Counted from the stretch's first letter, positions 40,353 through 59,870 are shown. The stretch: 64,000 bases of DNA from an uncultured delta proteobacterium (GCA_963760795.1 CAVXEP010000017.1:32001-96000), one strand, 5' to 3'. Numbers and translations are program-made. Notes: generated by a model not told the origin, from the sequence alone.

Positions 40353-40388
40353 CTATCCGGACAAACTGTTTAATGTGAATTTGCCTGT

Positions 40389-40419
40389 GTAGGATGGGTG
40401 GAGCGCAGCGATACCCATC
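40389..40419 (+). repeat. GTAG-family REP
   Basis: gtaggatgggtggagcgcagcgatacccatc; near-identical to the copy at 47911. Confidence 0.8.
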
Positions 40420-40462
40420 AATCTGCTTATTTTAAAAAATGCAATTTGCAATGCCCGAAGGG

Positions 40463-43980: not shown

Positions 43981-44054
43981 GGAGTAATGGAGTGCTGGAG
44001 TATTGGAGTGGTGGGCTCCGGATAACCCATTACTCCACCACTCCAATACTCCAA
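43981..44054. repeat. GGAGTRNT 8-mer tandem-repeat hairpin
   Basis: ggagtaatggagtgctggagtattggagtggtggg...cccattactccaccactccaatactccaa. Confidence 0.85.
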
Positions 44055-44063
44055 CGAATCCGT

Positions 44064-45470
44064 TTATCGCAACTCCAGCTCGATCTGATCTTTATCGACG
44101 ATCAGCGGCAGCATCGCTTCGCGAATGACTTTCTCGCTGACTTCGCCGAAGCGCTCTTTGAAACGGTCGAGGGGAACCACGGCTTTGGCCATGGCACGGT
44201 GGCCACCGGCGCTGCCGATATCGTCGTAGAGTTTTTTCATGATGTCGCCCGCGCTTTTAACGTAGCCGACGTTGCGCACGGAAATCACCACGCGATCGTT
44301 GACGAGACCGGACACCACGCCCCAGTCGACGCCTTCGATCTGTAGACAGAACTCGGCCATCTGCGGAATCACGTCTTCGCGGTTGACTTCGCCCAAGTAA
44401 ATCACGGCGACCCCGTTGTCGACTTGCAGGTGGCTCAACGCCCGGCCCATCGCTTCAAGATCTTCCCGCGGCAAGGCCGGCCGCTCGATGCGCGTGATCA
44501 TCGCCTTGTTGGCGAGCGGATAGAGATAGTTGAAGGCGCTCAAGTCGGCCAGGTTGCTGCCCCGTTCGAGAAACAGCGTATCGGTCTTGATGCCGTAGAG
44601 CAGCGCGGTGGCTAAGCGCTGCGACGGCTCCATGCCGGCGGCACGTAGATATTCCGTGAAGATCGTCGCCGTCGAGCCGTAGGCGGTGCGCAAATCGGCG
44701 AAGCGCGCCTTGAAGTTGCTCCGCTTCGGATGGTGGTCGACGACCAAGTCGACCCGTCCGAGAGTCTGCTCAAAGTAAGGCGGCTGGACGTCGACCATGG
44801 CTAGGCGGGCGCCGTCTTTGTGTAAGTCATCGGGGGTTATGTGATCGATTTGAATTTCCAACAGCTCGATCATCGCCAAATTCTCCGGGCGGGTGACCGT
44901 GCCGAACGTCACGATCGGCGTGGTCGTACGGTTGCGCCCGAGCAACTCGCGCAGCGCCAAAGCGCTGCCGATGGCGTCGGGATCGGGATCATGTTGCAAC
45001 AGGATGTGGATCTTCTTGCCTTCGTCGAACAACGAGCGGATGCGCTCGACTTTCTTGATATTGAGAGTGTCGAGCAGTTGAGTAGCGCAAAACTCGGCGA
45101 AGATATCGGCGAGCTGCAAGTGGCGCAACAACGGGTCGTCGGGTTCTTTCGTAGTTTTTTTGCCGTTTTTTTCCGAGGTCAAGGAAACGATCGGGATGTT
45201 TTTGTCGAGGGCACGCAACAAGCGGCACACCCGATCCTGCTCGTCGGCATCACGGACAAAAACCACCGCCTGATCGACATGGTGCAGTTTGATTTTCTTG
45301 TAGGTCTCTTCTTTTAAAAGGTCGCCATGCCAAACCTTAACCCGTTGCCGTTTGATACGCTGGGCGATATTTGCAGTAGGCACGAGGTAGCGCACGTCGC
45401 CCTGCTCGGTGGCGACATTGCGCATAAACTGAAATAACAGGTCGTCTTCACAGATGGCCAGATATTGCAT
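44064..45470 (-). CDS. DHH/DHHA1 phosphoesterase with an N-terminal TrkA_N/RCK-like domain
   Basis: HDPDPDAIGS, VDHH, GIKTDT, SVR, AGGH; N-terminal HGD...(D)QAVV RCK-like pattern. Confidence 0.85.
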   Translation of the reverse strand: MQYLAICEDDLLFQFMRNVATEQGDVRYLVPTANIAQRIKRQRVKVWHGDLLKEETYKKIKLHHVDQAVVFVRDADEQDRVCRLLRALDKNIPIVSLTSEKNGKKTTKEPDDPLLRHLQLADIFAEFCATQLLDTLNIKKVERIRSLFDEGKKIHILLQHDPDPDAIGSALALRELLGRNRTTTPIVTFGTVTRPENLAMIELLEIQIDHITPDDLHKDGARLAMVDVQPPYFEQTLGRVDLVVDHHPKRSNFKARFADLRTAYGSTATIFTEYLRAAGMEPSQRLATALLYGIKTDTLFLERGSNLADLSAFNYLYPLANKAMITRIERPALPREDLEAMGRALSHLQVDNGVAVIYLGEVNREDVIPQMAEFCLQIEGVDWGVVSGLVNDRVVISVRNVGYVKSAGDIMKKLYDDIGSAGGHRAMAKAVVPLDRFKERFGEVSEKVIREAMLPLIVDKDQIELELR

Positions 45471-45656
45471 AAGGATATCCCGTGAGCGGGACTTAGATGC
45501 GGCGGACTTGCACGGCGCAATCGGCAGCTTGTCGTTTCATCGGCACCGCCGGACTCTAGCACCTAGCTTGGGTCAAAGCTAGGCAAACTATTGATGCGTG
45601 GCTGCCAGGCAGCCTATAAGATAACGAATTATCGAAAGAAAGTAAGTACAAAAGGC

Positions 45657-46886
45657 ATGATAAACAGTGGTGAAAGAGGCTTTGGCCTAGGAAAATTCAG
45701 CGCAGTGGAACGTGGGCGGCGCTGGGCGCGGGTGCGCGAGCTGATGGCTAGGGAGCAACTCGATGCCATCATTGGATTTCCCAACCAGAGCCACTGGGAT
45801 CAGTTCCAGGCTGACATTCGCTACCTCACTCACATCGGCGGCCACCAAACCGAAGTTGCCATGGTCTTTCCGCTGACGGGTGAGCCCACCGCTTTTGTCC
45901 GCGGCAGCAACGAAATCGACTGGTGGCGCATCGCCCAGGACTGGGTCAGCGACATTCGCCCGTCACGACGCGAATGGAGCCCGCCGATGATCGCGCGCAT
46001 GAAGGAGTTGCAATTGGACCAAGGGCGCATCGGCGTCAGCGGCCTAAGCGGCCTGTTGCGTGCGCCCGAGGGCACTGTCGTCAGCGGCATGCTCGACAGC
46101 GTGCGCCAAGCGTTTCCCAAAGCCAAGTTTGAAAATGCCACCGAGCTGTTGCAAGACGCGCGCTCGATCAAAGGCCCGGAAGAAGTGGCCTGGATGGAAC
46201 GCGCCGCCGAGATCCTTGACCAAGTCGTCGCGGCGATCCTCGCCAAAGCGCGCCCCGGCGTGATGGAGAACGACATGGTCGCGACCATCTGGCAGACGAT
46301 CATCGCCAATGGCGGCGATTATCCATCGATGACCCACTGGGGCGCCGGCGCCGACGTGCCTTGGGCCTGCCGCATCGCGCCCCATCGGCCACTGCAAGCC
46401 GGCGACTTTATCAACACGGAACTCGAGGCCAAATACGGCGGCTATATTTCCCAGACCGTGCAGGCCGCTTGTCTCGGCAAGATTCCCAAAGAACTGAAAG
46501 GCGCCTTCGATACCAGCGTAAATGTCTTCAACGAATTGGTGCAGTTCATGAAGCCCGGCGTCTCTTATCGCGCCGTGATCGAGTTCTATCAGAAACTGGT
46601 TCGTGAAGCAGGCTTCATTCCCAAAGGCATGCTGCTGCACGGCCGCGGCATTGGCGAAGACCGGCCGCAAATCACCGGCGAGGTTGCCGGCGATATGTAC
46701 ACCAGCGCGACCTACACCCAACATCTCGATCTGCCGCTGCTCGAAGGCAACGTCTTCGTGCTCAAGCCCGGCGCCATGCCGGGCGACGCGCCCGACTCGA
46801 TCCGCTGCGGTGACACCGTGGTCATTGAGAAAACCGGCGCCCGACGGCTGGGCAAAAGACAGTTTACTTTTCCCGAAATTATGTAA
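45657..46886 (+). CDS. M24 family protein (creatinase/prolidase fold) with atypical metal ligands
   Basis: Creatinase_N region (IRYLT), RSIKGPEE, LHGRG, DTVVI. Confidence 0.8.
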   Translation: MINSGERGFGLGKFSAVERGRRWARVRELMAREQLDAIIGFPNQSHWDQFQADIRYLTHIGGHQTEVAMVFPLTGEPTAFVRGSNEIDWWRIAQDWVSDIRPSRREWSPPMIARMKELQLDQGRIGVSGLSGLLRAPEGTVVSGMLDSVRQAFPKAKFENATELLQDARSIKGPEEVAWMERAAEILDQVVAAILAKARPGVMENDMVATIWQTIIANGGDYPSMTHWGAGADVPWACRIAPHRPLQAGDFINTELEAKYGGYISQTVQAACLGKIPKELKGAFDTSVNVFNELVQFMKPGVSYRAVIEFYQKLVREAGFIPKGMLLHGRGIGEDRPQITGEVAGDMYTSATYTQHLDLPLLEGNVFVLKPGAMPGDAPDSIRCGDTVVIEKTGARRLGKRQFTFPEIM

Positions 46887-46974
46887 AAAGTATTTTGGGT
46901 GGGTTCGTTGACGCTTCGCCGCGATTTTAGATACGGTTACCGTTGGTAGCGGGCTCGATGGTGGAGGAAATTGA

Positions 46975-47883
46975 ATGGTTGCAGAAATTCGTTACGGCGT
47001 CGAAACCATCGATCACATCGCGATCCCGGTGCGCGATCTGGCATTGAACCAGGCGTTCTACGTCGAAACTCTTGGGCTTAAATTCAAAACCACCAGGCGC
47101 AATCCCGACGGCAGCCCGCGCCAAACCTACGTGCTCGCCGGTGACAATATCATCGGCCTACATTTACCTGGCGTCAGCGCCGGCACTGCGCCGAGCGGCG
47201 CGCCGAGAATCGGCGTCAGCGTCAGCAGCCAACGTTTCGCGCAAGTTGAAAACAATTTGCGCTTGGCCAAGTACCCGTTCGAAGATCCCGTCGAACATGC
47301 AGCCGACGCGCCGCTCACCCGCTCGATTTATTTCGACGATCCCGATGGCAACCATCTGGAATTTTGTCTGCGCCGCGTCGAACCGCGGATGGAATGTATT
47401 AGCCACACGGTTTTCGAAACCTGCAATATGAAAAAGGCCCTGACATTTTACTCCGAAGTGCTCGGCACAGGCGCGCCCATCCGATGCGGCGAGGAAACCA
47501 TGATGCCGACGCAAAACGGCCAAATGATCGGTCTTGTGGAAGTCGCGGAACTATCTGAGCGCAGTAAGAAACACGGCCGCGGCTGTCACATGGCCATGGA
47601 CGTGCGCCAGGAAGATTTCGACGCCATGGTCGCTCTCGTCGAGCGCCATGGCGGCAAGAGCCAAGGCGACAAGCGCGCCGACGATGGCTTGAGACCGGCG
47701 GGTGAGCGCAGCATTTACCTCTTCGATCCCGACAACAATCGGCTGCAAATCACCGCCCACGCAGCGAATCAGCAAGCAGAACTACTCGACGACGAAGAAA
47801 AATGGCGCCGCATCATCGCCAGCCGCAAAGAGCAAGGCAAAGGCCTCACCCGCTGGGAAAGCGGCGGGAAGAAACTCGTTTAG
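46975..47883 (+). CDS. Two-domain VOC family protein
   Basis: IDHIAIPV, SIYFDDPDGNHLE; second domain SIYLFDPDNNRLQ. Confidence 0.85.
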   Translation: MVAEIRYGVETIDHIAIPVRDLALNQAFYVETLGLKFKTTRRNPDGSPRQTYVLAGDNIIGLHLPGVSAGTAPSGAPRIGVSVSSQRFAQVENNLRLAKYPFEDPVEHAADAPLTRSIYFDDPDGNHLEFCLRRVEPRMECISHTVFETCNMKKALTFYSEVLGTGAPIRCGEETMMPTQNGQMIGLVEVAELSERSKKHGRGCHMAMDVRQEDFDAMVALVERHGGKSQGDKRADDGLRPAGERSIYLFDPDNNRLQITAHAANQQAELLDDEEKWRRIIASRKEQGKGLTRWESGGKKLV

Positions 47884-47910
47884 AAAATTCTTTCGCAGTC
47901 CAGCCATCCC

Positions 47911-48000
47911 GTAGGATGGGTGGAACGAAGCGATACCCATCTCAATCAACGCCGCGTGTGACATCAACCGATGGGTTTCGTCGGAACTCAGCCATCCTAC
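47911..48000. repeat. REPIN (two inverted GTAG-family REPs)
   Basis: gtaggatgggtgg...tacccatc ... gatgggtttcg...gccatcctac. Confidence 0.85.
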
Positions 48001-48032
48001 GGGGTTGCTTTGTAGTCATCATCGCGCTTAGC

Positions 48033-48061
48033 AAAAAAAGGGCGTAGCTAGCTACGCTCTT
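48033..48061 (-). terminator. Intrinsic terminator closing the radical SAM operon
   Basis: Minus strand gagcgtagc-ta-gctacgccc hairpin followed by T7. Confidence 0.7.
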
Positions 48062-48105
48062 CGGAAATTCTTCTTTGCGTTCTTTGCGGTGAAATCATCC
48101 GATTT

Positions 48106-49131
48106 CTAATTCTTCTTTGCCAAAATCAGCGTCGTCCCCGGCAGAGTCTTGGGAATATCGCCCTGGGTCGTGATCGAAGCGAATCCCGCCTTCTTCATCC
48201 AGTCGGAATATTGCCCCAGGGTCCAGCACTCCCCTTCCGGCGTATGCGTCAGCGTGTAAACGGAAAAACGCAACGCAAATGTAGGCTCGGTGCGCTCTTC
48301 GTTGGGCACGAAGTCGTTGACGACGAAGATTCCGCCCGGCTTCAAGGCGGAAAAAGCTTTAGCAAATAATTCCTGATTGCCCTTGGGCGATTCGAAGCGG
48401 CAGAAATTGCTGGCGAGAACTAGATCATAGTGATTGGTTTCGATGTTCGCTGTTTGATGTTCGCCGTCGATAAAACGAATCTTGCCTTCCAGGCCGCGTT
48501 CTTTGTTCACCTTCTGTGCCACCGCGTTGACGTTGGGCCAGTCGAGTTGTGTGACCTGGGCGGTCGGATCGCGCGTGACGATGGTCATGCCGAAGATGCT
48601 CGAACCGCCGGCCACATCGAGCACGCGCAAGCCTTTGCGCTCACTGCCAATTTTTAGCATATCGCATAGCGCTTTGGCCGCCGGCTCGGCGATGACGATG
48701 ATGCCGAGCACGAGTTTTTCCCAAACTTGCAGCTCGGCGTTGGTATCCATGCGGCTGAGCGGCTTGCCGGTCTTGAGCGATTCTTTGAGATGAGCCATGC
48801 CGTCCCACAACGCCAAGGCGACATGACGGAAATCACCGCAATAGGAAGGTTTGCCCTTGACCAGGAAAGCCTGCGCCGATGGTGTGAGGAAATACTTACC
48901 GTCGCGCTTTTCGATCAATGACAACGCCGGCAAGCTGTCGAGCACGATGCGCGTCGCGCGCGCGTCCGTGCCAGCTTCGCGTGCCACCGCTTCGGCGCTA
49001 TCGAAACCTTTGTTGATCAGCGTGAAAAAATCGTACTCCAGCGCGGCGTCCAAGATTTGGCTGTTGGCGAAATCGCCGAGTATCCGCATCAACGGACGGG
49101 GTGAAATTTCTTCTTGGTTAGACTCGGCCAT
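48106..49131 (-). CDS. SAM-dependent methyltransferase with N-terminal dimerisation domain (Methyltransf_2 family)
   Basis: wHTH-like N-terminus, LDVAGGS motif I, D-W-P motif II, ALKPGG; own ATG at 49131. Confidence 0.88.
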   Translation of the reverse strand: MAESNQEEISPRPLMRILGDFANSQILDAALEYDFFTLINKGFDSAEAVAREAGTDARATRIVLDSLPALSLIEKRDGKYFLTPSAQAFLVKGKPSYCGDFRHVALALWDGMAHLKESLKTGKPLSRMDTNAELQVWEKLVLGIIVIAEPAAKALCDMLKIGSERKGLRVLDVAGGSSIFGMTIVTRDPTAQVTQLDWPNVNAVAQKVNKERGLEGKIRFIDGEHQTANIETNHYDLVLASNFCRFESPKGNQELFAKAFSALKPGGIFVVNDFVPNEERTEPTFALRFSVYTLTHTPEGECWTLGQYSDWMKKAGFASITTQGDIPKTLPGTTLILAKKN

Positions 49132-49133
49132 GC

Positions 49134-49930
49134 TTACTCTTTGTACAGCCCTTCCTTCTTGATCTGCTGATACACACCCTCGAAGAACCAGGCGAAGTAG
49201 GCCGTGCCCATGCGCATGCAATACTCCAGGTTGAAGCCAGGGCGCGTCTCGGCCTTGCCTTCGATGAGCAGGTTCTTCAAAACCATCCAGTCCAAGATCG
49301 GCATGCGCCATGATGCCGTCATGTTCTTCCAAATCGGCCTTGGCGTGGACGCGAAAGTAGACGATCTTTTCTTCGGGGAAATTATAAACCTTGCGCAGCG
49401 TCGTACCGAAGAAGCGCGCCCAATGGCCGACGGCTTCCTCGACGCAAAACGACGCCCACCACTCGACCATGGTGCCCTCGTAGAGGACGCCGCGGTAGTA
49501 CTCCAGGAACGCGCGGCACTCGGCGAGCATTTCGTATTCGACCATCTCATCGTCGTTGAGTCCGAAGTTGCGTCCCTGTTCGAGGACGATCTGAATATGG
49601 CCGGGCGGCTTGGGATGCATCATCTCGTCGGCCACATGGGCGGCGAAATGCTTTTGCAGCTCCGGATGGCGCTTGAAAAACGGCAGAGTGGCGCTGGTAG
49701 GCGACACCGTGGAAATTATTGATCTCGGCGACAAAGCCGTGCCAGTTCTGCCAGAAGATTTTGATCGCCTCCATCGGCAGTGTGCCGTTGCCCATGTCGG
49801 TGTGGAAACGACCTTTGATCAGCCAGCGGTCGGCTATGTCGAGTAAATATTTCTTTAAGTCCGCGATCACTGCGTCGGCTTCCTGCGGCGAAAGTTTTTT
49901 CCCGGAAAAATCCTGTCTGCCTAGTCCCAT
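49134..49930 (-). CDS. Heme-oxygenase-like (PqqC/TenA/CADD) diiron protein; frameshifts near 49686 and 49300
   Basis: Three frames join to about 264 aa; ligand pattern DE..H..H (ADEMMHPKPPGH), VEE, H..AD..H (YFRVHAKADLEEH). Confidence 0.72.
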
Positions 49931-49988
49931 AATCCCCTCCTTAATTTAGCTCTGCCGATACCAATCTTTCCCGATTTCTGTTTCCGAC

Positions 49989-50018
49989 GTTGAACCTTTG
50001 AACGCTTGAACCTTGAAC
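49989..50018. repeat. TTGAAC tandem repeat (single arm)
   Basis: gttgaacctttgaacgcttgaaccttgaac. Confidence 0.6.
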
Positions 50019-50022
50019 GAAA

Positions 50023-51508
50023 TCAGAAAAGCGCCCCCGGGTTGAGAATATTATTCGGATCGACCAATTGTTTGATCTCTTTGACGACATCATAAAGGCT
50101 GCCGAGTCTATTATAGGGCACCGGCCCCTTGGTGCTCAGAGTCGGCGCCGTCCAGACCACGCCGCGTTCGTTGCTGAACTGCGTCACCATGCCCATCCAC
50201 TTGCGCAGCCGGCCGACGTCTTCGTCGTCATAGGGATTATAGAAAGTAAAATACTCTTCTTTGATGGCGAAATCGCGGGTGACGTAGCTATCGTGCTGCG
50301 GCGAGTGCTCGGCGTCCCAGATGCCGCATTCGCGCTTGGCCGCTTCGTCGAGGTCGTACATTTCTTTCAAAAATCGCAGCGGATACATTTTCGAGGTCAC
50401 TGCGAACATGCCGGTATGGCGCACCACCGTACCGCACCAACCGTCCGGCCCCATGATATGCCAGTCGGGCCAGCCATGCAGACCCAGCTCCTGCGCCTTC
50501 GCCCCCATCGCTTTGTCGGCGATCTCCGGCACGTCGACGCCGCCGGCGCTTTCATACACCCGCCGCATGCGCTTTTCTTTGAACGCCAGCTCTTCAGCGT
50601 CACGCGCCATGACAACGGTTTTCAGAAAAAACCAGCCGTCGTCGGGAATCTTGTTTTTGTCGTACAGCCCCTCTGCCATCGGCCAGTGATACTGCCAGCG
50701 GTCGGTGAAATGGATGTCGTAGACGACTTCGCCTCGGACTAATTCAACCAGGGAATCCTGCACCTGTTGGAGTTGATCGCGGCGGAACACGTAGCAGTAA
50801 TCATGCAGCCATTCGCGCTGGCATTGAATCGCGCGTAGACAGACTTTGCTGATGATCCCCATGGAGCCGGCGGCGAGGGTAAACAGACCCAACAGATCCG
50901 GCAGGTGAATCCATTTTTGAAACGGCCCGAAGGTCGTGCCTTGATTGGCCAGCGCGCCCAGGCGAATGGTTTCGCCGTTGGCGAGAATGACTTCCAAGCC
51001 GAGCACCATATCGGCGATCCAGCCGTAGCGGGTCATGCCATAGCCGATACCGCCTTTGTTGATCATCGCACCGATAACCACCGCCGGCCCGTAGGTGCCG
51101 AAGTTGGGCAGCATCAAGCCATGCTGGCGCAGCGCATGATGAATCGCGTACACACTGGCACCGCCCTCGGCAATCACGTACTGCATCGTGCGAATTCACT
51201 TCGAGGATCTTGTCCATGCCGAGCATGTCGAGCAAGACGCCGCCTTTGAGCGGCGAGCTGATGCCCATGCCGACGCCGCCCTTGGCGACGATGGGAATCT
51301 TATGCTCGTTGGCGAATCTCAAAATGTCGGCAACCTTGTGATTGCCTTGGGCGTCGGACTCGATGCGCACGATCACGTCTGGCAGCGCCCGGTAAGCACC
51401 GTAGGCCAGGGTGTGCTGATAATTAATCTTGTCTATCGGGTTAGTCGAAACCCGCCGTGGCCCGACGATCTCAGTCAGCTTGGCGATGATCTCGTCGAGG
51501 GAAAGCAT
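50023..51508 (-). CDS. FAD-binding oxidoreductase (VAO/PCMH, GlcD-like); frameshift near 51190
   Basis: PDVIV, KGG, LGLEVILANG, GSMGIISK, K..VDPNNILNPG C-terminus. Confidence 0.85.
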
Positions 51509-51523
51509 AGAAATGGGAATTTA

Positions 51524-51608
51524 AGGCAAAATGCAAATATCAAAATGAAACACTGCGGTTCACAGGAGCTGGCTTGAGACTGCAATTCACATTTTGCATT
51601 GTCGCTTG
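51524..51608. repeat. AAAATGC 7-mer repeat hairpin (degenerate)
   Basis: gcaaaatgcaaatatcaaaatg...cacattttgcatt; same family as 31963. Confidence 0.6.
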
Positions 51609-51611
51609 GAC

Positions 51612-52385
51612 TTAAAGCTGCAGATGGCTGCCGCCGGTGATGAGAATATGGCTGCCGGTCAGCATGCTGGCCTCATCGCCGGCGAGAAATGCGATCGCGC
51701 CGGCGACATCTTCCGGGTAGAGATGCTTTTTCAGTGGCCGGGTTTCTTTGACACGCTCGCGGAATGCCTCCGGCATGATCATCGAAGCATCGGTCAGCGT
51801 GAACGCGGGAGTTACGACATTGACGGCAATCCCCAGCGGGCCGAGCTCAATAGCCATCGTGTTGGCCATCGATTCCAACGCCGATTTGGCCGCCGCGTAG
51901 GCGCCCATGCGCGGCAACGGTTGCTGCGCCAAGCGGGTGCTGACAACGATGATCTTGCCGGCCTTTTTCTCTTTCATATCCGGCAAGCAGGCTTGCACAC
52001 AGTGATAAAACGCCGACAGTTCATGGTCGATCGCCTGGTGAAACTTTTCCCAGGCGATTTCATGCAGCGGGCTAACTTGAAATGGAAAGTAAGCATTATT
52101 GACCAGCACGTCGATGGCGCCGAGTTTATCTTTGACAGCGTTGACCATCGAATCGATCTGCACCCGCTGCGTGACATCGGCCTGAAAGATCATGCCGCGG
52201 GCGCCGGCGGCTTCCACTTGGCCAAGAACCTTTTGCGCCGCTTGCTGGTTTTGATGGTAATTGACGACCACCGCCGCGCCGCCCTGGGCTAGTCGAATCG
52301 CTGCCGCCGCGCCGATGCCCCGGCTCGCGCCGGTAACCAGCGCGATTTTGCCATGAAGTGTGGGGAGCTTTTTCTCTTCTGCCAT
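51612..52385 (-). CDS. Short-chain dehydrogenase/reductase (FabG-like)
   Basis: TGASRGIG, NNA, YAAAK. Confidence 0.92.
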   Translation of the reverse strand: MAEEKKLPTLHGKIALVTGASRGIGAAAAIRLAQGGAAVVVNYHQNQQAAQKVLGQVEAAGARGMIFQADVTQRVQIDSMVNAVKDKLGAIDVLVNNAYFPFQVSPLHEIAWEKFHQAIDHELSAFYHCVQACLPDMKEKKAGKIIVVSTRLAQQPLPRMGAYAAAKSALESMANTMAIELGPLGIAVNVVTPAFTLTDASMIMPEAFRERVKETRPLKKHLYPEDVAGAIAFLAGDEASMLTGSHILITGGSHLQL

Positions 52386-52397
52386 GGCCCGGCCAGA

Positions 52398-53879
52398 CTA
52401 GATCGCGACCTTATCTTCCGCCGCGCCCTTTTCGTATTTGGCGGCGTTGTTTTTGAACGATTCGAATTTCATCCGCACGTAAGGCGAGGTGTAGCCATTC
52501 AAGATGCGCTCGATGCGGCCCGGCTTGCTGTAAAAAGACTGAAAGGCCCAGCCCGTCAACTCACCCAACTGCTGGCGCGTCAGGTGCTTAGTCGGCATGA
52601 CGCTATGCTCCAAATCGTAAAGACTCAGATTGTCGACTTCGATGATGTTGTTCTTCACCGCCGCTTTGTAGATCGGCGAGCCGGGGATCGGATTGAGCAC
52701 TTGAATCATGACGATATCAGGATCGATTTCGTCGACCGCTTTGGCGCGCTGGCGAACCTTCGCTTCGTCGTCCTCCCAAAAGCCGTTGAGATAGGTCGAG
52801 ATGGTGGAAATATCGTTCTTGCGCAGGAACTGAATTAGTTCTTTCAACTCTTTGACACCGACTTTCATCGGTCCCTTGCGCGCTTCGGCGATCTCTTCGT
52901 CCGTGCCGCCGTCGATGCCGATCAACACTTGATACAAACCGACTTTGCGCAGCCGCGGCACCAGGTCCATGTCGCGAATCAAGTTCTGCGCCCGGCTGAG
53001 CATGAACCAGCTCATGTCTAACTTTTTCTCTTCCAACGCTTCGACCAAGTCGACCATTTTCTGCCGGTCGGAGTTGAAGTCATCGTCCATGAAGGTCAGC
53101 GCTTTGACGCCGTAGGTCTTGTTTAACAGTTCCATTTCATCGGCGACTCGCTTGCCGCCTTTAGTGCGGTGCGAGCTGAAATCCCGTGGATTGCGCTGGT
53201 CGACCAGCCACCACTCGTAGCAGAAATGACAAGCACCCTCGCATCCCCGAGAAGTCACCGATTCGTTGTAATTGGGTATCACCGAATAACCATAATACTT
53301 GTCCATCGGAAACAAATCGTAGGCTGGCAGGGGCAGGTCATCGAGATTGGCAATTACTGGCCGCGGCGGGGTCAGCACCACCTCGCCATTCTTTCGGTAT
53401 GCCAAGCCCTTAATAGCGCTGAAATCAGGCGCAGGTTTTTTCAGTTCCTCCAACAACTCCCCAACCGCATGTTCATTGTCGGCAAACACCCCGACAATCG
53501 CGAAGTCGAGTTGCGGATTATCGGTCATGATCTTCTGCGGCACCGCGGTGTACATCAAACCGCCGCCGATGGTGACGGTTTGCGGAGCGATTTCCTTGAT
53601 TTTTTGCATCGCCGCATGAAAGCGGTTGAGCGTCGCGGCGCCGCCCGCCGCGGCGATCATGGCGCCGAAGAACACCGCATCCGGCCGCTGCCGCTTCACC
53701 TCGTCGATCATCTGGTCGTCGTTCAACCCCAGCGCGCGGCAGTCGAGGACCGCCACCTCCGCGGCTTTTTTCTCGCGGATAAATGCCGCGACCTGGGCGT
53801 GCAACGAGTTGACGGCCAAATGACGGTCGCCCCACGGCGCCCAGTTGCCCATAGGGGGCGTGATAAAGAGGAGTTTCAT
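52398..53879 (-). CDS. Cobalamin-binding radical SAM enzyme (class B)
   Basis: N-terminal B12-binding Rossmann domain, LDDLPLPAYDL, SRGCEGACHFC (CxxxCxxC), FMDDDF, PIPGSPIY; AGGAG RBS before ATG 53879. Confidence 0.92.
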   Translation of the reverse strand: MKLLFITPPMGNWAPWGDRHLAVNSLHAQVAAFIREKKAAEVAVLDCRALGLNDDQMIDEVKRQRPDAVFFGAMIAAAGGAATLNRFHAAMQKIKEIAPQTVTIGGGLMYTAVPQKIMTDNPQLDFAIVGVFADNEHAVGELLEELKKPAPDFSAIKGLAYRKNGEVVLTPPRPVIANLDDLPLPAYDLFPMDKYYGYSVIPNYNESVTSRGCEGACHFCYEWWLVDQRNPRDFSSHRTKGGKRVADEMELLNKTYGVKALTFMDDDFNSDRQKMVDLVEALEEKKLDMSWFMLSRAQNLIRDMDLVPRLRKVGLYQVLIGIDGGTDEEIAEARKGPMKVGVKELKELIQFLRKNDISTISTYLNGFWEDDEAKVRQRAKAVDEIDPDIVMIQVLNPIPGSPIYKAAVKNNIIEVDNLSLYDLEHSVMPTKHLTRQQLGELTGWAFQSFYSKPGRIERILNGYTSPYVRMKFESFKNNAAKYEKGAAEDKVAI

Positions 53880-53914
53880 GTTATCTCCTGGTACCGGCGG
53901 GATTAGTTTCAATC

Positions 53915-53943
53915 AAAGTATTTAATAGGTTAACGATTGTCAA
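53915..53943 (-). promoter_or_regulatory. sigma70 promoter of the radical SAM operon
   Basis: Minus strand TTGACA-N17-TACTTT with an AT-rich spacer, 35 bp upstream of the start. Confidence 0.65.
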
Positions 53944-54108
53944 GATGAGCCGCCGAGAGTATCGGCGACGGACGGTTAAATCCTCGATAGAAATATTGGC
54001 TAACTGGAGATCATTAATCAGTTGACAACCTCCGACCCTTTTGGTACTGCTGCCGAAGCTAGGCGTCGGTAACAAGAACTTAATAGAAACCCCACAAAGG
54101 AGACCGTT

Positions 54109-54954
54109 ATGGCTCAAGGCGTGCAACAAGAAGAACAATTAATGGATATACGCGTCGCTGAATCGTCGGCGGCGTATAAGTTTTATCTCAATCAGGAAAA
54201 AAAGATTCTCGGTAGTTCCGCGGTGATTCTTTTCCTGTTGACTTGGGAGACCATCGGCAACTGGGCTGGACTTATTAACCCGATGTTCATGAGTGCGCCT
54301 TCGCTGGTGGGCAAGGCGGCCTGGCAAATGTTTGCCTCTGGGGAGATTTACAACGATCTCTATATCAGCGGCATTGAGTTCTTCTGGGGCTACCTTCTGT
54401 CTGTCATTTTTGCGATCCCCTTCGGCATCGCCATCGGCTGGTACAAGCGTTTCGCATACGTTTGCGATCCCTTTGTCAACGCCATGAATGCCACACCACG
54501 CGTTGCCCTGTTACCACTGGTCATCATCTGGCTGGGCATCGGCATCCTGTCCAAGGTCGGCATCATCTTTTTGGGCGCGGTGTTTCCGCTGCTGATCAAC
54601 ACCCGTGACGGTGTCAAAACCACTCCGGCAAACTTGCTCACTGCCGCCAGAAGCTTTGGCGCGTCGGAATGGCAGATCTTCAAATCCGTCGTATTGCCGT
54701 CCACCGTGCCGTTCATTCTGACCGGCTTACGCCTTGCCGTCGGCCGCGCACTCATCGGTGTCATGGTCGGCGAGCTTTACGCCGCAACCGCCGGCATCGG
54801 CTTCATGATTACGGTCGCCGGCGCGACCTTCCAAACCGATAAAGTTTTCGTCGGCGTCTTGATTTTCGCCATCAGCGGTATGACCCTGACCGAAGTCATC
54901 GACCGTTACGAACGTCGGTTCGACAAGTGGCGTCCCAAAGTCGGCGCTGAATAA
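54109..54954 (+). CDS. ABC transporter permease, NitT/TauT (SsuC-like)
   Basis: P.VALLPL...WLGIG, AARSFGAS (EAA loop), GLRLAVG, VGEL. Confidence 0.93.
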   Translation: MAQGVQQEEQLMDIRVAESSAAYKFYLNQEKKILGSSAVILFLLTWETIGNWAGLINPMFMSAPSLVGKAAWQMFASGEIYNDLYISGIEFFWGYLLSVIFAIPFGIAIGWYKRFAYVCDPFVNAMNATPRVALLPLVIIWLGIGILSKVGIIFLGAVFPLLINTRDGVKTTPANLLTAARSFGASEWQIFKSVVLPSTVPFILTGLRLAVGRALIGVMVGELYAATAGIGFMITVAGATFQTDKVFVGVLIFAISGMTLTEVIDRYERRFDKWRPKVGAE

Positions 54955-54984
54955 GAGAGATCCGACATTAACCGGCTTTAATCC

Positions 54985-55021
54985 AAAATGGCGCTTGGCA
55001 CTACCAAGCGCCATTTTTTTT
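54985..55021 (+). terminator. Intrinsic terminator
   Basis: aaaatggcgcttgg-cacta-ccaagcgccatttt followed by a T-tract. Confidence 0.85.
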
Positions 55022-55136
55022 GCCCGACTGGTTTATGAGGTAATAGAGATACCTCGCCAATGACGTTGCCTCGCCGCAGTATTTTCTATACGATCCCCGC
55101 ACTTCTCCCAGCTCAGTCAAAATCGATGGAGGCCCG

Positions 55137-57860
55137 ATGCGCAGACTCGGCGGCGTGACAATATTAATATTTGTTCTTGTCGTAATGTTCTTTCGCCAGG
55201 CAATCGGGCTGTATGTCGATTGGTTGTGGTTCCAGGACGTTGGCTACGGCCCGCTCTTTGGAACGATCTTATTTTATAAGTTCGCACTTGGCGCTTCTGC
55301 CGGCACGCTTCTCGCGTTGCTCATTTACGTCAATTTGAAGATCGCCTCTTCGTCAACGGGCGGATTTCGCTACTCCAGCGCGGAAAACATTATCGAGCTG
55401 CCGCCACCGGAACTGATCGATCCAATTCTTAAGCGGCTGCTTCTGCCCGGCGCCCTGCTCGTCGGCCTCATGGCCGCGCCCCAAGGGGCGGCCAATTGGG
55501 AACAACTCTCGCTGTTTGTCAACTCGACATCGTTCAATCTGCAAGATCCCCAGTTTGGCCGCGATGTCGGTTTTTATGTGTTTGTTTTGCCCTGGCTGCA
55601 AATTGTCTATCACTGGGCGATTTTCGCCATCGGTGTCACCGCGGTTGCCAGCGCCGCTGTCTACTTGGTCTATCGGGGCATTGAGTACACAGCACGCGGC
55701 CTTTTTCTCGGCGAACGCGCGCGCAGTCATCTGTTGATCTTGTTGGGTTTGTTTCTATTGATCAAAGCCTGCGGTTACTACCTAGACGCCTTCGATCTGT
55801 TGCATTCGCCGCGCGGCGTTTCCTTCGGCGCGAGCTATGCCGACATCTATGGCACCCTTCCAGCGCTCCGCGTGCTGACGTTTCTGGCACTCATTGCGGC
55901 GGCGCTCTGCTTTGTGCAGATAGCCCGCACCGGCTATAAATTCGTCTTCCTCGGCGTTGGCGCCTTGGTGGCAGTCCACTTATTGGGTCTCAATGCTTAT
56001 CCGACGCTCTTGCAACGCTTCCGTGTCACGCCCAATGAAATCGAGGCGGAACGGTCGTTCATCGAGCGCACCATTAAATTCACCCGGCTCGCCTTTGGCC
56101 TGGATAAGATTGAAACCAAGGAGTTTCCCGCCGATGAGCAGTTAACAGCCGCCGACTTGAAGCGCAATGAATCGACCATCAGTAATATCCGCCTATGGGA
56201 CCATCGGCCGCTCCTGACCAGCTACGCCCAGCTCCAGGAGATCCGGCCTTATTACAAGTTCATCGATGTCGACAATGACCGTTACATCATCGACGGCACC
56301 TTTCGGCAGGTGATGTTGTCCGCTCGCGAGCTGTCACATCGCCATTTGCAAAGTCAAAACTGGATCAACGAGCATCTGACTTTCACCCATGGCCATGGCG
56401 TGGTCTTTGGACCGGTGAATCAGGTGACCTCCAGTGGTCAGCCCGAGTTTTTCATCAAAGATATTCCGCCGCTGGCGACCACTTCGCTGAAAATCACCCG
56501 CCCCGAGATCTACTACGGCGAACTCGCCAATGAGTATGTACTCGTCCAGACCAAATCCCAGGAATTGGACTACCCCTCTGGCGATCAGAATATATACACC
56601 ACATACAAAGGAAAAGGCGGCGTGGCGATCGGCAGCTTCTGGCGCAAGTTGGTTTTCGCGGCGCACCATACGTCCATGCGCATCCTGCTATCCCAGGATC
56701 TCACCGGCGAAAGCCGGATACTTTTCCATCAGAAGATCCAGGAGCGGGTGAAGAAAATCGCGCCGTTTGTCACCTTCGATACTGACGCCTATATCGTCAT
56801 CGCCCAAGGCGGCAGGTTATTCTGGATTATTGACGGCTATACCAATTCGGCCCGCTATCCCTATTCCGCACCACTGAGCCGGCAAGGGATGAATTATATT
56901 CGCAACTCCGTCAAGGCGGTCGTCGACGCCTATAACGGCACGGTGGAATTTTATCTGAGCGATCCAGCGGATCCGATCATTCAGTCGTTCGCCAAGACTT
57001 TCCCGCAAGTGTTTAAACCTCTCGAAACCATGCCCGAGGATCTGCGCGCCCATGTGCGTTATCCCCAGGATCTCTTCACGATCCAAGCCCATGTCTATGC
57101 CACCTACCATATGCAGGACCCACAGGTCTTTTTTAACAAGGAGGATCTCCTGAGCATCCCGCGGCGCACGATAGAAGGCCGCGAGCGCGATATGGAGCCC
57201 TACTACACGATCATGCGCCTGCCAGGAGAGGAGAAGGAAGAATTCATTCTGCTCTTACCGTTCACGCCGAATAAACGCGACAACATGCGCTCCTGGCTGG
57301 CGGCGCGCAGCGATGGAAAAAACTACGGCAAGTTAACCGCGCTGGAATTTCCCAAAGCGAAATTGGTCTATGGCCCCAAACAGATTGATGCGCGCATCGA
57401 CCAGGATACCATCATCTCCCAACAATTGACGCTGTGGAGCCAGCGCGGCTCGCAGGTGCTCCGCGGCAGCCTACTCGCCATCCCCATCGAGAAGTCCTTG
57501 CTCTACGTGCAGCCGCTCTATTTGGCCGCGGACCAAGGCTCATTGCCGGAATTGAAACGGGTAATTGTCGCCTTCGGTAACCGCATCACTATGGAAGAAA
57601 CGCTCGATCAAGCCCTGCAAAGCATCTTTGGCGCTAAGCCAGCGGTGGCGCCAGAGGCGCTGCCACAGCCCGCCAGTGCAGCGGTATTGCCACCGCCCGT
57701 CAAAGGGGATCCATCGCTATCGCGCCAGGCGTTGGATCATTTCCAGCGCTCCCAGGAACTACTCAAACAAGGCAACTGGGCTGGCTATGGCGAGGAGCTG
57801 AAGAAAGTCGAGGCCCTGCTCAAAGAAATGCAAAAGGGCCGTGAGTCCGAGGCGAAATAA
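55137..57860 (+). CDS. UPF0182 family membrane protein
   Basis: DWLWF, DPQFGRDVGFY, NIRLWD, YTHG-like FTHG, NYIRNSVKAVVDAY, YVQPLY. Confidence 0.93.
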   Translation: MRRLGGVTILIFVLVVMFFRQAIGLYVDWLWFQDVGYGPLFGTILFYKFALGASAGTLLALLIYVNLKIASSSTGGFRYSSAENIIELPPPELIDPILKRLLLPGALLVGLMAAPQGAANWEQLSLFVNSTSFNLQDPQFGRDVGFYVFVLPWLQIVYHWAIFAIGVTAVASAAVYLVYRGIEYTARGLFLGERARSHLLILLGLFLLIKACGYYLDAFDLLHSPRGVSFGASYADIYGTLPALRVLTFLALIAAALCFVQIARTGYKFVFLGVGALVAVHLLGLNAYPTLLQRFRVTPNEIEAERSFIERTIKFTRLAFGLDKIETKEFPADEQLTAADLKRNESTISNIRLWDHRPLLTSYAQLQEIRPYYKFIDVDNDRYIIDGTFRQVMLSARELSHRHLQSQNWINEHLTFTHGHGVVFGPVNQVTSSGQPEFFIKDIPPLATTSLKITRPEIYYGELANEYVLVQTKSQELDYPSGDQNIYTTYKGKGGVAIGSFWRKLVFAAHHTSMRILLSQDLTGESRILFHQKIQERVKKIAPFVTFDTDAYIVIAQGGRLFWIIDGYTNSARYPYSAPLSRQGMNYIRNSVKAVVDAYNGTVEFYLSDPADPIIQSFAKTFPQVFKPLETMPEDLRAHVRYPQDLFTIQAHVYATYHMQDPQVFFNKEDLLSIPRRTIEGRERDMEPYYTIMRLPGEEKEEFILLLPFTPNKRDNMRSWLAARSDGKNYGKLTALEFPKAKLVYGPKQIDARIDQDTIISQQLTLWSQRGSQVLRGSLLAIPIEKSLLYVQPLYLAADQGSLPELKRVIVAFGNRITMEETLDQALQSIFGAKPAVAPEALPQPASAAVLPPPVKGDPSLSRQALDHFQRSQELLKQGNWAGYGEELKKVEALLKEMQKGRESEAK

Positions 57861-57881
57861 GATCGTAGAACCACACAGCGT

Positions 57882-59870
57882 TCAGCCTATGTGCGGGTTA
57901 GTGTGGTAGCGGCCACTGACAAGCAGATCCTCGGCGCTACGCAAGATCGCTAAGCCGTCTTCGGTCCGCTCTGCCTGCGTTGCGCTCATCGCCATTTCTG
58001 ACCATGGCGTGCCACGAGCCGCGCGCTCATAAGCAATCCGGTCGCCGGACTCGCGCAGGACAATCAGCTCACGATCCGTGACCATGCCGTAGCGCTTCTT
58101 GTTGTAAATCACCATGGCGGCCGGAGCTTCGGCTGGCTCCTTGAGCACATCGCGGCCGAAAAATGTGCTGCGGTATGCGCCGCCGACCATGCCCATGACC
58201 GTCGGCGGTAAGTCCATCTGACTGGTTACCGCGCCGATGCGCCCCGCCGCGATATGTTTCGGCGCCAGGAACAAAGCCGGGACGATGTATTCGTCGATGG
58301 GGATGAGCTCATTGCCGCGCAAGTGCACGCCATGATCGCCGACAAAGACAAATAACGTATCATCGAAGTAGGGCGCCTGGCGCGCCGCGCGAATAAATTG
58401 ACCGACACAGAAGTCGGCATAGAGAAAGTTATTCAACTCGGCGAGCTCAAAGCCGGGCGGCACCCTGGTATCAGCGCCAAGTGGTTTAATCTTGCCCGCC
58501 GGGAATTGCCAGGGCGAGTGCAGCGATACCGTCAACAGGGTGGCAAAAAACGGCTTCCCCGCTTCATGGTAACGGCGAAATTCCTCGCCGGCCCGTTCAA
58601 AGAGATCTTCATCCGACACACCCCAAGGGCTTTTGTAGTGCGGCGCGGAGAAATCTTTTTCCTCGATAAAGCGATCGAAGCCGTTACCGAGAAAGAAAGC
58701 CAGCATGTGATCGAAAATCCCCTGGCCGCCGTAGAAAAAACTCGTCGCATAACCGCGCTCACGCAGCACACTCGCCAAGGTCAAAAAATTTTGCCGCGCC
58801 TGCGGCCGTTTGACCACCCCTTCGCCGGGAAGTGGTGGAAACGAACAGACCGCGGCTTCGAGGCCTTGGATGGTTCGCTCTCCGGTGGCGTAGCAGCGTT
58901 CCAACAGCAGGCCTTCTTCAGCGAGTTTGTCTAGTTCCGGTGAAAGCGCCGGCACACCGCCAAGACATCCGGTCAGCCCTCCGGTAAAACTCTCCATCAC
59001 GACTAACACCACGTTGAGCGGCGCGGCCTTCGCCGCATTGGTAATTCGCCGCACCAGAGGATTCGGCCCGTCGTCGGTGAATTGACAGCCCTCAGCTAAA
59101 ATTTTGCGGGACCGCTCAATCGCTCGCTCGGCGGATGGTAGTTGGGTCACGCTCTTAAGCGCCGTGAATTCATTTTTAGCGCGTTGACTCCACTCGTAGA
59201 GCAGATTGAAAATCCCGCAACAGGCGATCTCGTTGGCGATCCGATTGGTTGTAAACGACGCCAGACTGGGATTGAGCGGCCGATGATCGAAGGTGCCGCG
59301 GCTAGCGAAGCCGACGACAAGAAGCCAGAGTAGAGTCATAACGCGATCCGACAACCACAGGAAATCACTTCTGGCGTTGCCCTCCGCCACTGGAGCTAGA
59401 AACTGTACCGCAATCACTGCCAACCAAGCGCCGATCCCGCTCAGCAAGAAAATGCGCACTAAGGGATAGGCTTTGGCGACGGTCTTGAGCACCTCGCGAT
59501 CGGCTCCATGTTCGAAGACCAGATAATTGGGTCGGAAATCATAAAAGCGAAAGAAGAAACTGCCGGCGATCTCGGCGAAAAATAGTGTGAAGTAAAGAAC
59601 GCTGAGGTAGAGCCCAAAGAAAAACTGACTTGCAACAAGGAGATCGCCAGGCAACGTCAGCGCGGCAACCACCAGCGGCAGGCAGCCTCGGCTGACGATC
59701 ACGGCGTCCAACCGGAAACCGATCCAAAATAGTTTTAACTTTTGCCGGCGGTTCAGCTCTTTGACATCGGCGCGCCGTTCCCAATAGAGCCACAGGCGAA
59801 ACCCGGTCAAAATGAGCGCGGCAACAAGGCAAATGGCGACGGCTAAGGTCGTGCGCGGCAGTTCAAACAT
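57882..59870 (-). CDS. LTA synthase (LtaS/MdoB) family sulfatase-fold membrane protein
   Basis: About 5 N-terminal TM helices, NVVLVVMES, catalytic Thr in ERTIQG, SLHSP, GDHG, SQMDLPPT. Confidence 0.9.
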   Translation of the reverse strand: MFELPRTTLAVAICLVAALILTGFRLWLYWERRADVKELNRRQKLKLFWIGFRLDAVIVSRGCLPLVVAALTLPGDLLVASQFFFGLYLSVLYFTLFFAEIAGSFFFRFYDFRPNYLVFEHGADREVLKTVAKAYPLVRIFLLSGIGAWLAVIAVQFLAPVAEGNARSDFLWLSDRVMTLLWLLVVGFASRGTFDHRPLNPSLASFTTNRIANEIACCGIFNLLYEWSQRAKNEFTALKSVTQLPSAERAIERSRKILAEGCQFTDDGPNPLVRRITNAAKAAPLNVVLVVMESFTGGLTGCLGGVPALSPELDKLAEEGLLLERCYATGERTIQGLEAAVCSFPPLPGEGVVKRPQARQNFLTLASVLRERGYATSFFYGGQGIFDHMLAFFLGNGFDRFIEEKDFSAPHYKSPWGVSDEDLFERAGEEFRRYHEAGKPFFATLLTVSLHSPWQFPAGKIKPLGADTRVPPGFELAELNNFLYADFCVGQFIRAARQAPYFDDTLFVFVGDHGVHLRGNELIPIDEYIVPALFLAPKHIAAGRIGAVTSQMDLPPTVMGMVGGAYRSTFFGRDVLKEPAEAPAAMVIYNKKRYGMVTDRELIVLRESGDRIAYERAARGTPWSEMAMSATQAERTEDGLAILRSAEDLLVSGRYHTNPHIG

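Follow-up and report, generated by a model that had tools for sequence, protein, structure and literature searches.

The analysis of a 64,000-nucleotide stretch of DNA from an uncultured delta proteobacterium (GCA_963760795.1 CAVXEP010000017.1:32001-96000, hereafter referred to as the window) disclosed, on the minus strand from position 53943 to position 48033, five co-oriented enzyme genes carrying the domains of a B12-binding radical S-adenosylmethionine (SAM) enzyme (rSAM), a short-chain dehydrogenase/reductase (SDR), a flavin adenine dinucleotide (FAD)-linked oxidoreductase, a heme oxygenase-like (HO-like) protein and a methyltransferase (MT). The comparison of related loci shows that these genes form a conserved, promoter-bearing and B12-linked operon of five enzymes from uncharacterised subfamilies, and 48 out of the 64 loci compared contain all five in this order. 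Concerning its role, we tentatively prefer, with a confidence that falls just short of an even chance, the joint proposal that the operon is genuine, functional and intact in nature in soil bacteria and that its products carry out the biosynthetic tailoring of one small, aromatic or otherwise carboxylated metabolite. The operon joins two enzyme superfamilies, the class B rSAMs and the HO-like dimetal oxidases (HDOs), and is common in soil metagenomes. Literature searches retrieved no description of it, nor of any pathway combining an HDO with an rSAM, in agreement with the preliminary description of this DNA, which could place the five-enzyme combination in no recognised pathway. A retrieved paper on chalkophomycin deals with a different system.

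Organization, conservation and integrity of the operon

The features of the locus are the following:

52398..53879, minus strand: B12-binding rSAM gene, 493 aa (PF04055 and PF02310)
51612..52385, minus strand: classical, FabG-like SDR gene, 257 aa (adh_short_C2, PF13561, 185.6 bits)
50023..51508, minus strand: gene for a FAD-linked oxidoreductase of the VAO/GlcD superfamily, 494 aa in relatives (PF01565 on both pieces of the open reading frame, ORF)
49134..49930, minus strand: gene for a candidate HO-like dimetal oxidase, 264 aa in relatives (PF14518 on the middle ORF piece)
48106..49131, minus strand: gene for a SAM-dependent MT with a dimerisation domain, 341 aa (PF00891, PF08100)
53915..53943, minus strand: promoter-like block TTGACA-N17-TACTTT (TTGACA at 53943-53938, TACTTT at 53920-53915)
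53885..53889, minus strand: ribosome-binding site AGGAG, preceding the rSAM ATG at 53879 (GGAG is conserved in relatives)
48033..48057, minus strand: intrinsic-terminator-like hairpin GCGTAGCTAGCTACGC followed by CCTTTTTTTG, i.e., hairpin and T-run, as a single terminator
49990..50018, minus strand: four tandem GTTCAA units in the spacer between the FAD and HO-like genes, one copy of a genome-dispersed repeat

The intergenic gaps measure, in order, 12 bp (rSAM-SDR), 103 bp, 92 bp and 2 bp (HO-MT). The co-orientation of the five genes and their domains (recovered as Pfam matches), the two shortest gaps and the intrinsic terminator had all been indicated in the preliminary description and were all found. 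The rSAM ORF can be extended upstream to a TTG at 53912; orthologues are 493 aa long when counted from the ATG, and the ATG at 53879, behind AGGAG, is accordingly taken in this annotation as the true start.

The promoter had been called near-consensus. The TTGACA-N17-TACTTT arrangement is present, and the block TTGACAATC.TTAA..T.TTAAATAyTTT is invariant in eight out of eight aligned relatives, with the flanking spacer diverged; however, the -10 box TACTTT shares only three out of six positions with TATAAT, which is why the site was not listed by a consensus scan, and most of the eight relatives read TATTTT there. One row of this alignment is the unpublished genome G004, on which no conclusion rests. 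A genome-wide search for the block, allowing up to four substitutions, returned the operon's own site only and hence no regulon. Apart from the promoter blocks, the aligned upstream spacers are divergent and contain no conserved small ORF, and an Rfam search of positions 44000-58000 revealed no RNA element and no riboswitch ahead of the operon. In the same divergent spacer, at 54020-54075, a second conserved block has the minus-strand sequence CAGTACCAAAAGG ... GTTGTCAAC; its plus strand reads as a TTGACA-type -35 box for an orphan ATP-binding cassette (ABC) permease gene (54109-54954, plus strand) divergently adjacent to the operon. The statement that the cluster contains no transporter therefore holds for the operon itself, but such a permease gene lies within 38 of the 64 related loci.

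These loci were retrieved by scanning species-representative genomes with an alignment of the HO-like protein: 376 stretches matched, 290 were confirmed and the best 80 were kept, 64 of which are orthologous loci. Besides the 48 loci with the complete, ordered set, there are 12 in which truncation by contig ends is the only defect and four variants, i.e., L043 and L073 without the rSAM gene, L074 without the MT gene and L083 with a rearranged order. The five genes thus do co-occur in other genomes, the point on which the proposal of an operon had been made to depend. An rSAM orthologue with at least 79% identity is harbored by 21 out of 24 genomes of the genus, the remaining three being 65-84% complete; outside the genus, it was also detected in another genus of the family and in a single genus belonging to a sister family, and in none of the 11 genomes of a third family (f3). 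The operon belongs to the core of a single genus of uncultured soil bacteria with large genomes. In a sample of 301 genomes drawn from the wider phylum, the HO-like orthologue was found only in the window's own family (2/301 at E<=1e-60). The records of the related loci are soil metagenome genomes, mostly entitled 'Candidatus Binatia' or 'Deltaproteobacteria', and the orthologue clusters comprise up to several hundred member sequences from soil metagenomes. Parts of the operon were also detected in DNA-type runs (the type being guessed) from eight studies, and the contigs of one RNA run (X16) overlap parts of the rSAM, FAD and HO genes, although such libraries can contain DNA.

In the assembled sequence the five genes, real as they are, appear as seven ORF pieces, owing to three frameshifts that had previously been overlooked. 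A single extra base near 51190 interrupts the FAD gene, and two more, near 49687 and 49293, interrupt the HO-like gene; both genes are intact in the related genome G003. Among contigs assembled from four public short-read runs, which represent near relatives mostly 90-99% identical to the window (identity of strain being unproven), the extra base near 49293 is absent in four out of four runs, that near 49687 is absent from the contig of the sole covering run, and that near 51190 is absent from the sole covering contig (run X1), as it is from G003. Moreover, over 58,931 aligned bases the window exhibits 26 isolated extra-base events of a length not divisible by three with respect to G003, versus 10 in the other direction; 24 of the 26 are single-base and two are two-base events, they lie outside homopolymers (e.g., at 22333, 23409, 26436, 27053 and 27888 in the nuo genes, and at 36521, 60737 and 61390), and they break many genes, those of complex I subunits included. 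Since the three extra bases are missing from short-read contigs and relatives and similar insertions are spread all over the window, they are most likely assembly errors; the window-wide pattern looks like one of consensus errors, and the gene calls of this genome need care. The three frameshifts might otherwise be read as the sign of a decaying cluster, in which the FAD and HO-like genes would be true pseudogenes in this organism. This appears very improbable, given that every covering short-read contig lacks the extra bases, that the excess of such events extends to the nuo genes, and that in other few-contig assemblies it is different genes of the same operon that are broken.

The GTTCAA units of the FAD-HO spacer belong to a family of 107 tandem arrays in the 6.58-Mb genome, each with 3-5 units and 1-2 nt spacers, often arranged as inverted pairs 40-80 bp apart and resembling a dispersed repeat of the repetitive extragenic palindromic (REP) or miniature inverted-repeat transposable element (MITE) type. 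The array occupies this spacer in six of the 64 loci, and it accounts for a depth spike and for loose contig ends observed there.

Features of the five enzymes

The rSAM exceeds the cut-offs of both PF04055 (40.3 bits versus 29.5) and PF02310 (36.2 versus 32.1), and its sequence CEGACHFC contains the CxxxCxxC cluster motif; with this core and an N-terminal B12-binding domain, it is a class B (cobalamin-dependent) enzyme by domain architecture. The best-scoring curated family is TIGR02026 BchE (165 bits, cut-off 481), the match covering positions 36-418 of the 497 in the profile; when the genome is searched with the BchE hidden Markov model (HMM), the operon rSAM is at the top with 164 bits and the next gene scores 83. 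The other families are even more distant: Sden_1168 P-methylase (130 bits, cut-off 575), HpnJ (117, cut-off 578), BzaD (TIGR04385; 79, cut-off 450) and AprD4 (47, cut-off 500). The matches in the PDB are weak (AprD4, 3e-8; CysS, 6.5e-7), and the orthologues are named BchE by the Joint Genome Institute (JGI). The MT is also far below the cut-off of BchU/CrtF (TIGR02716: 31 bits, cut-off 276), so that neither it nor the rSAM is an ortholog of an enzyme of the characterised BchE, BzaD or BchU pathways, a relationship that, according to the preliminary description, would have refuted the proposal. By its profile matches, the MT falls within the PF00891 family of small-molecule methyltransferases: PF00891 (41.2 bits) and PF08100 (37.9 bits) are both above their cut-offs, the SAM motif is LDVAGGSS, and the best PDB match is 2r3s (4e-37), followed by MfnG, DsyB, RedM and SibL; the methyl group may be accepted by O, C, N or S.

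The SDR is a classical one, with VTGASRGIG (TGxxxGxG) and YAAAK (YxxxK) motifs, and a generic one, its best PDB matches being FabG proteins. The FAD protein scores 89 bits against the GlcD family, whose cut-off is 568. Its best PDB matches, all at about 1e-17, are PCMH, LctD, D-LDH and glycolate oxidase, but only the FAD domain aligns, and the substrate domain is unlike that of any solved chain. Met81 aligns with Tyr94/95 of PCMH, the phenolate-binding tyrosine of a Tyr-Tyr-Arg triad; close to the C-terminus, Y465 and R467 are invariant, with a spacing different from that of the PCMH-type triad. A 4-phenol-oxidising enzyme of the VAO/PCMH type was therefore rejected, because the phenolate triad is not reproduced. 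In the variant locus L083, a GlcF-like Fe-S protein follows the FAD gene, and on the whole we lean towards a GlcD-like dehydrogenase acting on a secondary alcohol or a 2-hydroxy acid.

The HO-like protein scores slightly below the PF14518 cut-off (27.5 versus 28.9 bits, on the middle ORF piece), and its assignment was corroborated by structure prediction. The AlphaFold2 model of the intact G003 orthologue (predicted local distance difference test, pLDDT, 91) displays a seven-helix HO-like fold, whose closest match in Foldseek is CADD (8vag; TM 0.84, E 7e-7), followed by PqqC, TenA and UndA, with BesC retrieved too; the preliminary description had pointed to the first two. Six residues (E102, H111, E165, H195, D199 and H203), all located on predicted helices, are invariant in 17 sequences with identities down to 30%. 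They would fit the ligand set of three His and three carboxylates expected for HO-like dimetal oxidases according to the consulted sections of a review (PMC13108848), their correspondence to the CADD ligands being drawn from spacing rather than from superposition. In the same 17 sequences there is no invariant lysine, whereas CADD, as stated in those sections, donates its Lys152 (PMC13108848); hence the protein is not a self-sacrificing p-aminobenzoate synthase of the CADD type, and its score with the CADD family (TIGR04305, 27 bits, cut-off 200) also led us to reject that identity. Rejected as well was the identity with PqqC, the label given by JGI to the orthologues: a pqq search confined to 56 ORFs scanned in the window retrieved neither a SPASM-type rSAM nor Pfam matches for PqqA, PqqB or PqqD, and the invariant His and carboxylate residues are kept. 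PqqC is not known to have a metal-ligand set of that kind. In two database entries (P0201 and P0202; 586 and 604 aa), the HO-like protein is fused to the MT; given a spacing of only 1-2 bp between their genes, these fusions may be frameshift artefacts.

Genomic contexts and possible function

The indications about the substrate come from the paralogues and distant relatives of the operon's enzymes. Among the annotated loci of HO-like paralogues or distant homologs, five out of seven harbor a UbiD decarboxylase gene within two genes, together with genes for NMT1-type binding proteins, bicupins, TctABC or Amidohydro_2 proteins; two of the UbiD-linked loci belong to the window's own genome (L112:5613-9043, contig C31, and L113:4474-9067, contig C35). 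A module comprising an NMT1-type binding protein, the HO-like protein and UbiD, often with Amidohydro_2, bicupin or TctABC, recurs in L112, L113, L098, L103 and L090. The closest HO-like relative outside the lineage (55% identity, in a record labelled Acidobacteria) is flanked by DmpG, an SDR and a Rieske oxygenase. As regards the rSAM, paralogues 45-71% identical are found with UbiD (L016), in an operon with a tripartite ATP-independent periplasmic (TRAP) transporter beside Amidohydro_2 (L020), and with TctCAB (L021); in the first of these (L016:5863-9443, genome G029), the 71%-identical rSAM gene lies 8 bp upstream of ubiD and next to an IS200-type transposase gene, and the four other operon genes are missing from that genome. 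Variant loci carry binding proteins, a flavin mononucleotide (FMN) hydroxy-acid dehydrogenase, a GlcF-like Fe-S protein and a hydrolase. Since both the HO-like and the rSAM paralogues are tied to the uptake and decarboxylation of acids, the substrate is most likely an aromatic or otherwise carboxylated small metabolite, as far as gene neighborhoods can tell. These data also bring to attention an unstudied HO-like family that pairs with UbiD decarboxylases.

The five enzymes might act in sequence on one small molecule. The translationally coupled HO-like oxidase and MT would first oxidise the substrate, probably by hydroxylation, and thereafter methylate the group so introduced; the BchE-like rSAM and the SDR, coupled as well, would perform a radical C-H functionalisation (either a C-methylation or an O2-independent hydroxylation) followed by a redox step between keto and alcohol forms; and the GlcD/VAO-type flavoprotein would dehydrogenate a secondary alcohol or a 2-hydroxy-acid position. 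Pairings of a flavoenzyme with an SDR are known from DprE1/DprE2 and from 4-ethylphenol oxidation. The substrate class, the order of the reactions and the preference for biosynthesis over breakdown are inferred. The leaning towards biosynthesis comes from the presence of two SAM-consuming enzymes, from an operon that encodes no decarboxylase, no ring-cleavage enzyme and no transporter, and from the fact that all the validated HO-like oxidases in the consulted sections of the review are biosynthetic (PMC13108848).

Some observations weigh against the tailoring of one small metabolite by an intact operon. No curated family cut-off is reached, so that every chemical step is drawn by analogy; the model of the FAD protein (AlphaFold2, alignment of 13 sequences) has a pLDDT of 47 and is unusable for assigning a subclass; and two of the five genes are broken in this assembly. 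The FAD-SDR-HO core also occurs without the rSAM or the MT (L043, L073 and L083), and the operon was not found in the third family (0/11 f3 genomes) nor, by the FAD orthologue, in G025, G027 and G029 (97, 97 and 96% complete, respectively), which makes it accessory. Furthermore, the paralogue contexts, with their transporters, decarboxylases, cupins, and Rieske oxygenase with DmpG, look catabolic. The designation of the operon as biosynthetic is thus tentative, since relatives of the HO-like protein and of the rSAM sit in uptake and decarboxylase loci, where a catabolic or biotransforming role would fit. According to this alternative, the operon would be a catabolic or biotransformation module converting an imported soil aromatic or hydroxy acid, derived from lignin or humic matter, into a central intermediate, or detoxifying it. 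The expansion of the HO-like family (nine, eight and five copies in G029, G025 and G027, respectively), the UbiD, bicupin, binding-protein and TctABC neighbors of its members, the DmpG, SDR and Rieske oxygenase genes around the 55%-identical relative, the operons that join rSAM paralogues to UbiD or to a TRAP transporter, the gene content of the variant loci and the permease gene divergently adjacent in 38 of the 64 loci would all be in keeping with it. On the other hand, two SAM-consuming enzymes would be costly for bulk catabolism, an oxidase coupled with a methyltransferase speaks for the building up of a molecule, and the operon contains no transporter, regulator, decarboxylase or ring-cleavage gene. 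A catabolic role is not known for any rSAM of class B or any HO-like dimetal oxidase, and the consulted sections of the review do not list any such oxidase (PMC13108848). On balance, catabolism is a serious contender, yet a less likely one than tailoring.

The biosynthetic tailoring that we prefer leaves room for a more specific product, and a lineage-specific cofactor-like or pigment-like molecule, on whose scaffold the O2-dependent HO-like enzyme and the cobalamin rSAM would both act, can be envisaged, although we consider it a long shot. One possibility would be a BchM/BchE-type route outside chlorophyll chemistry, in which a carboxyl or hydroxyl group would be methylated, the neighboring carbon oxidised to a ketone, and the ring closed or methylated. 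If this were true, it would be the first pathway to unite class B rSAMs and HO-like dimetal oxidases, and it would disclose the real meaning of the Binatota 'bchE'. The confidence left beyond tailoring and catabolism is to be shared among decay of the cluster (see above), the three proposals that follow, and unknowns.

Automatic pipelines suggest a remnant of tetrapyrrole metabolism of the bacteriochlorophyll type, with the rSAM as BchE and the MT as BchU or CrtF. Homologs of bchE, bchU, bchQ and bchR are indeed reported from Binatota (PMC8262859, in the sections consulted), and the operon rSAM is the best BchE-HMM match of its genome. However, the BchE and BchU scores are far below the cut-offs, the three matches returned by the BchU-HMM over the genome are all genes other than the operon MT, and an SDR, a VAO-type flavoprotein and a CADD-like protein are not bch genes. 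The same sections describe Binatota as devoid of a reaction centre and of key steps, and refer to the bch homologs as gene shrapnel (PMC8262859). This proposal is largely refuted and deserves hardly any credence: since the rSAM belongs to a non-chlorophyll operon, it provides no evidence for bacteriochlorophyll synthesis, and the operon's 'bchE' is, judging from its score and partners, not a chlorophyll gene. The operon suggests in concrete terms how the puzzling 'bchE' calls made in non-phototrophic Binatota may be understood, the identity with the gene reported there being presumed (PMC8262859).

The combination of a B12-rSAM with a putative dimerisation-domain O-methyltransferase had also suggested an analogy with Bza, i.e., that the operon makes or remodels the lower ligand of a cobamide by a BzaC/D/E-like logic. 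In eight of the 64 loci, moreover, the operon is divergently adjacent to genes for TonB and a receptor, each preceded by a cobalamin riboswitch, and in one of the related loci (L065) CobS adjoins it as well; these eight loci all fall in one subgroup, so that a single rearrangement may account for them. The window's genome has the B12 module on another contig (L105:1405-9983, contig C29; a further instance is L106), where three cobalamin riboswitches control the genes for TonB, a TonB-dependent receptor and a ribonucleotide reductase of class Ia, next to a CobS-like gene. A low-scoring CobS-like gene was found in five out of five genomes searched, but CobT, CobU, CbiB and true BluB were above cut-off in none of the five. 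The CobS-like gene is thus an orphan in the absence of CobT, CobU and CbiB, and the attachment of a lower ligand by the known route is precluded; these absences, together with the riboswitch-linked TonB and receptor genes, indicate that the hosts are B12 importers. Such import supports a real cobalamin dependence of the rSAM, as predicted from its domains. With the low BzaD score and no riboswitch ahead of the operon, the gene content makes a Bza-like role unlikely and largely refutes it, leaving it next to no chance. In addition, the host is an aerobe, with three heme-copper oxidase genes and no dsrA found in its genome, and an anaerobic or sulfate-reducing lifestyle was rejected on the same grounds.

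The maturation of a peptide-derived cofactor or of a ribosomally synthesized and post-translationally modified peptide, in analogy with PqqE/PqqC, might finally be thought of, because an rSAM is paired with a PqqC-like fold and because of the JGI naming. Nevertheless, the upstream region contains no conserved small ORF that could encode the peptide, the gaps within the operon do not exceed ~103 bp, the rSAM is of the B12 rather than of the SPASM type, and the HO-like protein keeps a putative metal-ligand set that PqqC is not known to have; we regard this proposal as barely conceivable.

Some neighboring genes may be recorded here. Downstream, convergent with the operon, a gene encodes a two-domain glyoxalase-fold protein with just weak, Fos-like matches in the PDB and NCBIfam; given its orientation and these matches, no tie to the operon was drawn. 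A local duplication is indicated at 38871-41929, where a tandem pair of FAD_binding_2 genes (493 and 488 aa) shares about 77% identity in DNA.

Relationship with known systems

The preferred tailoring function may be considered in the light of characterised enzymes. Beginning with the HO-like protein, the predicted model shares the HO-like fold with CADD (CT610) and the HDO superfamily (UndA, SznF, BesC and AetD), and its invariant three His and three carboxylates are candidate counterparts of their metal ligands. With respect to CADD, however, it is only 14-15% identical, remains far below the family cut-off and has no invariant lysine. Its family is multi-copy and usually adjoins UbiD, a pairing to which the consulted sections of the HDO review make no reference (PMC13108848).

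The FAD protein has the FAD_binding_4 domain in common with GlcD/D-lactate dehydrogenase and PCMH/VAO, and the GlcF-like partner in L083 recalls the former; it differs from PCMH in the Met81 at the phenolate tyrosine position and in a substrate domain unlike those of solved chains. With BzaC, BzaD and BzaE of the anaerobic dimethylbenzimidazole route, the operon has in common that a B12-rSAM is accompanied by a putative O-methyltransferase with a dimerisation domain, whereas the genes are non-orthologous, the host harbors no CobT, CobU, CbiB or BluB, and no riboswitch precedes the operon.

As for the rSAM, the N-terminal B12-binding domain followed by the CxxxCxxC core is shared with the class B enzymes BchE, HpnJ, the PhpK/Sden_1168 P-methylases, BzaD, CysS and TokK. 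The operon enzyme nonetheless comes nowhere near any of the curated cut-offs, and the genes accompanying it do not belong to the bch, hpn, phosphinate or bza sets. An rSAM directly followed by a reductase is reminiscent, by analogy, of AprD4/AprD3, but neither aminoglycoside nor nonribosomal peptide synthetase genes are present, and the AprD4 score is very low. In the CysS-type logic, a scaffold is hydroxylated, O-methylated and then radical-methylated; the joint presence of a candidate oxidase, a putative O-methyltransferase and a B12-rSAM, possibly acting on one scaffold, is the trait that the operon would share, by analogy, with that logic.

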